Source: Escherichia coli (GTDB lineage Bacteria > Pseudomonadota > Gammaproteobacteria > Enterobacterales > Enterobacteriaceae). From it: a DNA stretch of 64,000 nt. How positions within the stretch are numbered: the first letter of the stretch is position 1; the number at the start of each line of letters is the position of its first letter. Below, piece after piece: positions 9,001 to 12,000 of the stretch. The DNA lies in assembly GCF_030013595.1 (NCBI RefSeq), contig NZ_CP122769.1; one strand, 5' to 3'. A program made the position numbers.

Positions 9001-12000
9001 AAACTGGACCGGACTGTTCCGTCCCGGTGAAAAGATACGCTTACGGTTTATCAACGGCTCGGCAATGACCTATTTCGATATCCGTATCCCCGGGCTGAAA
9101 ATGACGGTCGTGGCTGCAGATGGCCAGTATGTAAACCCGGTTACCGTTGACGAATTCAGGATTGCCGTTGCCGAAACCTATGATGTCATTGTGGAGCCTC
9201 AGGGTGAGGCCTATACCATCTTCGCACAATCCATGGACAGGACCGGTTACGCTCGAGGGACACTGGCCACGAGAGAGGGGTTAAGTGCTGCCGTTCCCCC
9301 CTCGATCCCCGTCCTCTGTTGACCATGGAAGATATGGGTATGGGGGGAATGGGACATGATATGGCAGGAATGGACCACAGCCAGATGGGAGGCATGGATA
9401 ACAGCGGAGAGATGATGTCTATGGACGGTGCTGACCTTCCGGATAGCGGGACATCCTCCGCGCCCATGGATCACAGCAGCATGGCCGGTATGGATCATTC
9501 CCGGATGGCCGGAATGCCGGGTATGCAAAGTCATCCTGCGTCAGAAACGGATAACCCACTGGTTGATATGCAGGCGATGAGCGTCTCTCCGAAATTAAAT
9601 GATCCGGGTATTGGTCTTCGAAATAACGGAAGAAAGGTTCTCACGTACGCGGATTTGAAAAGCCGCTTTGAGGATCCTGACGGACGTGAACCTGGCCGTA
9701 CCATAGAACTGCATTTAACCGGCCACATGGAAAAGTTTGCCTGGTCATTTAACGGAATCAAGTTTTCAGATGCCGCACCGGTGCTGCTGAAATACGGTGA
9801 GCGGCTCAGGATCACGCTGATCAACGATACCATGATGACTCACCCCATTCACCTGCATGGTATGTGGAGCGATCTGGAAGATGAAAACGGTAATTTCATG
9901 GTTCGTAAACACACAATAGATGTTCCCCCTGGTACAAAACGCAGTTACAGAGTGACAGCAGATGCGCTTGGCCGCTGGGCGTATCACTGCCATTTGCTCT
10001 ATCACATGGAAATGGGAATGTTTCGTGAAGTCCGGGTGGAGGAATGATGCGAATGAAGAGAAATTTGAAGGCCATACCTGTTCTGGTCGCCGGTTTGTTT
10101 ACCTCACAGCTTTCTATTGCGGCGGGCTCCGTCTCTGCAGATCCCCACGCCGGGCACGACATGTCTGCCATGCAGATGCCAGCAGATGAGAATTTCACTG
10201 AGATGACGTCAATGGAGCCCATTGTAACTGAGAGCAGAACGCCAATTCCGCCTGTTACCGATGCCGACCGGAAGGCTGCATTCGGCAATTTACAGGGGCA
10301 TGCGATTCACGACAGTGCGATTAATTATCTGGTTCTGCTGGATCAACTGGAATGGCAACGGTCGGATAACACCAACAATTTCAGCTGGAGTGTTAACAGC
10401 TGGATTGGAGGCGACACAGATCGGATTTGGCTAAAGAGTGAAGGTGAACGAAGCAATGGGGAAACGGAGGCGGCTGAAGCGCAGTTACTCTGGGGACATG
10501 CGGTTGGCCCATGGTGGGATTTGGTTACGGGTGTCAGGCAGGATTTCAGACCTGCTTCTGCCCGGACCTGGGCTGCTGTCGGTTTTCAGGGGCTGGCACT
10601 CTATAATTTTGAGTCTGAAATTACGGGTTTTGTCAGTAATGGCGGAAAAGCAGCCCTTCGTCTGGGAGGAGAATACGACGTTTTACTGACTAACCGGCTC
10701 ATACTCCAGCCATCCTATGAGGTGAATTTCTACAGTCAGGATGATGAATCGCGGGGTCGCGGCAGGGGACTGACTGACACAGAGCTGGGGCTCCGGCTGC
10801 GCTATGAAATACGCCGTGAGTTTGCACCCTATATAGGCGTTTCCTGGAATCAACTTTACGGGAAAACATCCGATATGGCGAAAAGAGAAGGTGAGAAAGA
10901 CCATCAGGTAGTATTCCTGGCGGGAGCCAGAATCTGGTTTTAACGCACTGATATAAAACACTCAACTAAACAGGTAAATAAAATGTCGATTTTAAATAAA
11001 GCCATTCTTACAGGTGGCCTCGTTATGGGCGTTGCTTTCTCTGCTATGGCCCATCCGGAATTAAAAAGCTCTGTGCCACAGGCTGATTCAGCCGTAGCGG
11101 CCCCGGAAAAGATTCAGCTTAATTTCTCGGAAAATCTGACCGTGAAATTCTCAGGTGCAAAATTAACGATGACGGGTATGAAAGGCATGTCATCACATTC
11201 TCCGATGCCGGTCGCGGCAAAAGTGGCGCCAGGCGCTGACCCTAAATCGATGGTCATTATTCCGCGAGAGCCTTTACCCGCTGGCACTTATCGTGTTGAC
11301 TGGCGCGCGGTTTCTTCAGATACGCACCCTATTACCGGTAATTACACCTTTACAGTGAAGTAATATTATGAACGACCTGATTATGATTGTTATTCGTTTT
11401 CTTCTTTATCTGGATTTGATGGTAATATTTGGATTGCCATTTTTTCAGATATATGGAATAAGCGGTGTCAGACATGAAACCTATAACCTGACTAATTTCA
11501 GGTCGTTTATAACTTTTGCTGTTGTTACAGGCATCATTCTTACTGGCATTAATATGCTCCTGGTATCTAATGCCATGAGTGGAGTAACTGACCTCAGAGA
11601 ATTATCCATCCATGTTATCGAGATGGTGATAGAAGAAACTGATGTGGGTATTAGCTGGATTGTCAGGCTCTGTGCTGATGAATCCCCTAATGATTTTGGT
11701 AAAAATCATTAAGTTAAGGTGGATACACATCTTGTCATATGATCAAATGGTTTCGCGAAAAATCAATAATCAGACAACAAGATGTGCGAACTCGATATTT
11801 TACACGACTCTCTTTACCAATTCTGCCCCGAATTACACTTAAAACGACTCAACAGCTTAACGTTGGCTTGCCACGCATTACTTGACTGTAAAACTCTCAC
11901 TCTTACCGAACTTGGCCGTAACCTGCCAACCAAAGCGAGAACAAAACATAACATCAAACGAATCGACCGATTGTTAGGTAATCGTCACCTCCACAAAGAG

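Follow-up and report, generated by a model that had tools for sequence, protein, structure and literature searches.

A split pcoA and an IS10-interrupted pcoD in the pco operon of an IncHI2 plasmid carrying mcr-1.1

The closest described counterpart of the gene examined here is PcoA/CopA of the pco system (CHASRI), of the pRJ1004 type and a member of family TIGR01480. The canonical protein has 605 aa and combines a twin-arginine (Tat) signal, three cupredoxin domains and a Met-rich region. Domain 3 of multicopper oxidases is the source of the type-1 copper site and of half of the trinuclear-cluster histidines. The genes of the canonical system lie in the order pcoABCDRSE. On IncHI2 plasmids the pco operon is often found disrupted, and disruption is on record for Salmonella as well (PMC4855149; PMC12582456); the inactivation reported there is by deletion or by an insertion sequence (IS) in pcoA, pcoD or pcoR. 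Passages of PMC4855149 cite literature in which resistance is abolished by mutation in any of pcoABCD.

We analysed a stretch of 64,000 nucleotides from Escherichia coli (NZ_CP122769.1), referred to below as the window, which is part of an IncHI2 plasmid and so has the same backbone as the published cases. It carries silA-silP, pcoG-like and pcoF-like genes, pcoABCDRSE, a cytosine methyltransferase gene, IS1, umuDC and transfer genes. The pco genes are in the usual order, beside silP and the pcoF/pcoG-like genes. Farther downstream, about 13-16 kb from the broken pco operon, the window also contains blaTEM-1 (23125..23985) and the colistin resistance gene mcr-1.1 (24225..25850). Whereas the published IncHI2 cases are deletions and IS insertions, the window additionally has a homopolymer frameshift, which is not described there. 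Searching the literature for frameshifts of pcoA and for IS10 insertions into pcoD returned nothing specific, most matches to 'PCoA' being principal-coordinate analyses.

The split pcoA gene

A sequence-only reading of the window had placed pcoA in two open reading frames (ORFs) in adjacent frames, 8231..9322 and 9319..10047, and both were present on the plus strand in our ORF list, overlapping at 9319..9322. The 5' fragment (8231..9322) encodes 363 aa, consisting of native residues 1-357 followed by six out-of-frame residues. The 3' fragment (9319..10047) begins at a TTG and encodes 242 aa, native residues 364-605, in the wild-type frame. The two lengths add up to the 605 aa of wild-type PcoA, as that reading had also stated. 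The exactness of the sum is partly coincidence, in that the first ORF ends with six aberrant residues and the second starts at native residue 364.

The frames part at a C homopolymer on the plus strand at 9296..9301. Here the window has six Cs (GTTCCCCCCTCG), whereas seven (GTTCCCCCCCTCG) are found in the intact pcoA of E. coli ATCC 8739, K. pneumoniae pKPN_CZ and the Salmonella plasmid NZ_CP117034.1, with the local sequence otherwise the same. The k-mers that distinguish six from seven Cs are GTTCCCCCCTCGATC, which is the window sequence around 9290..9310, and GTTCCCCCCCTCGATC. Alignment to intact pcoA therefore upheld the proposed loss of one C, but the seven Cs typed for the window itself proved to be six. 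The wild-type protein sequence proposed for this point, ...AAVPPLDPRPLLTMEDMG..., is what the 605-aa PcoA reads. In silico re-insertion of one C yielded the canonical 605-aa PcoA (P0016) at 100% identity, residue for residue, and the restored protein scored 995 bits against TIGR01480 (cut-off 479) over profile positions 6-593, a full-length family match. With six Cs the frame shifts after Pro357 (codon 358), continues as SIPVLC and ends at the TGA at 9320..9322, and the only product possible is the 363-aa protein without domain 3. The six-C tract is no chance pattern, being the sole difference in 11.7 kb from the closest relative, and the great majority of public records differ from it here, with seven Cs in every differing record that was inspected. 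Besides the tract in its wild-type form, only one C/G run of the window sequence reaches 7 nt; a Dam site (GATC, 9304..9307) adjoins the tract. A further run, G6 at 9342..9347, lies 40 nt downstream within the sequence coding for the Met-rich stretch. Noisy public assemblies (L012, L037, L042) have one-base indels there too; the window's copy is intact.

Profile searches divided the domains of PcoA between the two fragments. The 5' fragment has a TAT_signal_seq domain at residues 5-31, and Pfam Cu-oxidase_3 (52-163) and Cu-oxidase (172-347), which correspond to cupredoxin domains 1 and 2. The 3' fragment contains the Met-rich linker, Pfam Cu-oxidase_2 at residues 125-241, which corresponds to cupredoxin domain 3, and the C-terminal copper ligands HPIHLHG and HCHLLYHMEMGM. 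TIGR01480 is covered at positions 5-359 by the 5' fragment and 366-593 by the 3' fragment. The break thus falls between cupredoxin domain 2 and the Met-rich linker, before domain 3, and no single polypeptide holds the three cupredoxin domains, with domains 1-2 and domain 3 in different frames. The twin-arginine export signal is confined to the 5' fragment; the domain search found no signal peptide in the 3' fragment, and no obvious Shine-Dalgarno sequence precedes 9319 or 9325 in the window sequence. We conclude that pcoA in this record is a pseudogene. Because domain 3 supplies copper-site ligands, the 363-aa product, which lacks the Met-rich region as well, should be inactive and unable to oxidise Cu(I). 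The same lesion is already known, having been labelled 'frameshifted' by NCBI annotation in identical sequences such as that of E. coli KCTC 2571.

The pcoD insertion and the nearest relative

The remainder of the operon was delimited with the ORF list and the annotation of relatives, all genes lying on the plus strand. With its start overlapping or directly adjoining the stop of pcoA (ATGA), pcoB (10044..10943, annotated from identical sequence in relatives) has probably become uncoupled from pcoA in translation. pcoC (10983..11363) is intact, as are the two-component regulator genes pcoR and pcoS (13684..15767). Between them, pcoD is broken by a complete 1329-bp IS10/ISVsa5 (11675..13003, plus strand) with both junctions sequenced. 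The element has the ends CTGATGAATCCCC... and ...GGGGATCTCTCAG (terminal repeats present) and a transposase gene at 11782..12990, whose 402-aa product belongs to the IS4 family (404 bits). It is flanked by a 9-bp target duplication, GGCTCTGTG, at 11666..11674 and 13004..13012. The 5' part of pcoD (11368..11674, plus strand), equivalent to positions 1-99 of the 295 in the NCBIfam CopD profile, reads into IS10 as a 114-aa chimeric ORF ending at 11712. The 3' part (13004..13635, plus strand), assigned from the ORF list and by comparison with relatives, is cut off from the start and from the promoter-proximal half of the gene.

This is a second pco lesion, independent of the tract, as had been suspected from the sequence. 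Because IS10 interrupts pcoD, the plasmid pco system is non-functional whichever way the C-tract settles. Given the IS10 in pcoD, copper resistance would be overestimated for this mcr-1 IncHI2 plasmid if it were read from the mere presence of pcoA or pcoD. The finding is an ordinary one from which no new biology follows, and its value lies in annotation and resistance prediction.

The left IS10 junction in pcoD, with the same 114-aa chimeric ORF, was also found on seven other public contigs, and the pcoD::IS10 junction had no match in the plasmid database. We considered whether these contigs could serve as same-lineage witnesses of the six-C tract. The four of the seven that were inspected all have C7 and an intact 605-aa pcoA and are 25-390 SNPs from the window, which ruled them out. 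By these sequence comparisons, IS10 in pcoD looks like a recurrent insertion at one hot spot, separate from the lineage of the window, and because the contigs reflect that hot spot they are silent on inheritance of C6. A further IS10 lies inside pcoA on a plasmid of E. coli ETEC1706 (NZ_CP122916.1; L003, 3012..4341), 8 nt upstream of the C-tract. The site is equivalent to window positions 9279..9288, the target duplication is GGTTAAGTG, and the same plasmid also has C6.

The nearest relative is NZ_CP117034.1, a Salmonella enterica plasmid from pig faeces, from which the window differs by zero substitutions over about 62.6 kb. Four events separate the two: the change from C7 to C6, the IS10 in pcoD, which NZ_CP117034.1 lacks, and two changes in repeat copy number. 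At about 21034 the window has two units of CCAAAA and NZ_CP117034.1 has three; this repeat is in-frame and belongs to the minus-strand gene for the DNA cytosine methyltransferase. At about 47282 the window has lost 87 bp relative to NZ_CP117034.1 (L007, 22009..22097), leaving one of three palindromic units of about 44 bp. The unit, GAAAAGTGACCCTATG...CATAGGGTCAC, is intergenic and upstream of mobI, and the units may be part of a transfer-origin region. Tandem Repeats Finder reported no repeats at 46500-48500, and the 87-bp difference was found by direct comparison only. All other homopolymers of at least 7 nt (n = 34, including A8 at 6476, T8 at 7128 and an A9) agree with NZ_CP117034.1. As one piece, window positions 1-25000 were not found in any plasmid or E. 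coli record.

Six-C and eight-C alleles in public records

We searched 2483 plasmid and 759 E. coli records with a 74-base probe across the tract. The six-C form was matched exactly in 16 of the 2483 plasmid and 20 of the 759 E. coli records; about 2460 and 738, respectively, differ from it, aligning with a one-base gap, and all of those inspected have seven Cs. The C6 records span Klebsiella, Escherichia, Salmonella, Enterobacter, Raoultella and Cronobacter and many replicon types, and they are grouped by submission batch (ETEC17xx, CP183xxx/CP187284, CM1426xx, CP0258xx). E. coli KCTC 2571 (NZ_CP147025.1) and Cronobacter turicensis pCTU3 (FN543096.1, with a split pcoA) share the C6 tract and 1817 bp identical to the window. 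They are other replicons in other hosts, and their pcoD is intact whereas that of the window has IS10. KCTC 2571 has C6 and three assemblies labelled ATCC 8739 have C7, in a 17.8-kb locus that is otherwise identical. A lone C6, which may be an error, can therefore occur in an assembly that is clean elsewhere.

To count alleles on a larger scale, we looked up the truncated products, by exact match, in a collection of 15 billion proteins, binning blocks by the longest contig carrying them. The blocks are not independent samples, and the contig-size bins are only a proxy for sequencing technology. For longest contigs of <2 kb, 2-5 kb, 5-10 kb, 10-20 kb, 20-50 kb, 50-200 kb, 0.2-1 Mb and >1 Mb, the wild-type 605-aa protein gave 20, 2039, 9547, 10101, 24393, 7525, 4718 and 794 blocks. 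Over the same bins, the 363-aa product of C6 gave 3, 42, 89, 42, 34, 10, 27 and 17 blocks, and the 376-aa product of C8, the +1 allele, gave 2, 14, 10, 27, 57, 8, 3 and 1. The 122 C8 blocks (for example L044-L047) are mostly on contigs of the size typical of short-read assemblies.

On contigs of 10-200 kb the two alleles were about equally rare relative to wild-type blocks (C6, 86/42019 = 0.20%; C8, 92/42019 = 0.22%), whereas on contigs of at least 0.2 Mb C6 rose about fourfold, to 44/5512 (0.80%), with C8 at 0.07% (Fisher p = 2e-11 for the enrichment of C6 in long contigs and 2e-8 for C6 versus C8). In finer bins the ratio of C6 to wild type was 0.13-0.14% at 20-200 kb, 0.57% at 0.2-1 Mb and 2.1% above 1 Mb, and the +1 allele had no such rise. 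C6 was enriched in very short contigs as well. Because C6 and C8 are similar in 10-200 kb contigs and C6 alone rises in long ones, we conclude that genuine slippage alleles form a low baseline, symmetric between -1 and +1, to which assemblies of the long-read type add a deletion-biased excess of C6. By the contig-size proxy, artefacts account for about three quarters of the C6 calls in long contigs. Anyone reusing such data should note that six Cs in the pcoA of a long-read assembly reflect an artefact more often than a mutation; real -1 and +1 pcoA alleles nonetheless circulate at about 0.2% each.

We then compared 32 C6 loci, each against a reference, for companion indels, leaving out those shared with a C7 panel. 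Further private one-base homopolymer indels were present in 22 of the 32 loci, with as many as 21 in E. fergusonii p280_40A, and the recurring sites were A8 at 6476, T8 at 7128, G5 at 12069 and C5 at 9926. The other ten loci had none. Of ten records from the plasmid database, four were clean. Both kinds of C6 record therefore exist in public data, in keeping with the initial view that the window's tract is either real slippage or a homopolymer error. In one lineage the deletion is very probably real: an NCTC K. pneumoniae assembly and the independent Logan assembly of run ERR161601, which from the age of its accession would be short-read data, have the same 13-kb sequence but for two differences, and both have C6.

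Origin of the six-C tract in the window

We put the chance that the window's C6 is a genuine deletion of one C from C7 somewhat above even, judging from the sequence comparisons. Slipped-strand mispairing in the homopolymer during replication would have removed one C. The resulting shift after Pro357 would give an exported 363-aa product with the Tat signal and domains 1 and 2. Translation would end 720 nt before pcoB, which would remove the coupling and may add polarity on pcoBCD. pcoA would then be a decaying gene in a dead operon whose pcoD is also broken by IS10; either lesion could have come first. Selection on pcoA may have been relaxed because pcoD was already knocked out, a point in favour of a real event. 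The competing account, to which we give a probability a little short of even, is that the plasmid truly has C7 and an intact pcoA, that the consensus dropped one C, and that only pcoD::IS10 inactivates pco. The error would be a typical residual one of long-read homopolymers, maybe aggravated by the adjacent Dam site. It would resemble such errors in being a single-base deletion in a C/G run, of a kind that is enriched in long contigs, clustered by batch and accompanied by other indels in most C6 records. The rise of C6/wild type in long contigs, absent for the +1 allele, argues for an artefact, as do the private indels in 22 of 32 C6 loci, the batch grouping and the disagreement between KCTC 2571 and the ATCC 8739 assemblies. 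The addition of one C gives the canonical protein exactly, and a tract that is one of two long C/G runs is the likeliest place for a single residual error. Moreover, C7 is the form in the nearest relative, and the search for same-lineage records gave none with an inherited C6. The window differs from most error-bearing C6 records, however, in having no other homopolymer discrepancy, or any companion error, in about 62.6 kb with 34 long runs. It falls in the clean class, with A8 (6476) and T8 (7128), which are wrong in noisy C6 assemblies, both right. Assemblies this clean are often short-read polished, and polishing normally corrects a C7 run. C6 also occurs as a real allele, at about 0.2%, and the share of C6 loci that are clean (10/32, and 4/10 for plasmid-database records) roughly matches the share that should be real. 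C6 versus C7 is also one of only four events in about 62.6 kb without substitutions, and since two of the three other differences are repeat slippages (the 6-bp unit and the 87-bp loss), slippage appears to be the main route by which this plasmid diverged. We estimated the probability that a clean C6 record is real from a prior of 0.25-0.36 (plasmid-sized contigs) and a clean fraction of 0.31-0.40, assuming that 80-90% of real alleles are in clean assemblies. The result was roughly 0.5-0.8, or roughly 0.35-0.6 with a stricter baseline of 0.14%; these are rough figures. For a window this clean, the odds slightly favour a real mutation over an artefact.

The tract could also be functional, either as a selected on/off switch or through a bypass that gives full-length PcoA: the ribosome could slip by -1 on U CCC CCC, the polymerase could slip during transcription, or translation could restart at 9319/9325 and the two halves then assemble. 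We regard this as scarcely credible. In its favour, the -1 and +1 alleles are both found repeatedly, and about equally rarely, in contigs of short-read size, a -1 slip there would bring back V-P-P-L-D exactly as in wild type, and the frame breaks between domains, after domain 2 and ahead of the Met-rich linker. The in-frame C7, however, is found in 97-99% of records, and in pcoA alleles at 98% and 86% identity the tract is broken (CCCGCCCTG, CCCGCACTC), giving Pro-Ala-Leu. The C-run is shorter than typical phase-variable tracts, the RNA at 9290..9400 has a minimum free energy no better than shuffled sequence (z = 0.02), re-initiation would have neither a Shine-Dalgarno sequence nor a signal peptide to draw on, and pcoD is knocked out anyway. 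A programmed frameshift was rejected, as the out-of-frame form is not conserved among homologues and there is no downstream stimulatory structure. A phase-variable locus was rejected as well, on the broken tract in diverged alleles and on OFF forms at only about 0.2% each in short-read-sized contigs. Slippage at a low level, whether by -1 on U CCC CCC or in transcription, would recreate the wild-type sequence without rescuing an operon in which pcoD is interrupted. A related idea, a long shot in our judgement, is that the C7 run of the dominant pcoA allele acts as a reversible mutational switch that turns the oxidase off and on in plasmid populations. Loss of pcoA might then be linked to secondary pcoD lesions, because PcoC and PcoD without the oxidase may be harmful. 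In the NCTC K. pneumoniae C6 lineage (L020 / L021, 9138..9917), pcoD is deleted at its 3' end and encodes 259 aa. Damage to both pcoA and pcoD in the window and in that lineage could be coincidence, relaxed selection or compensation.
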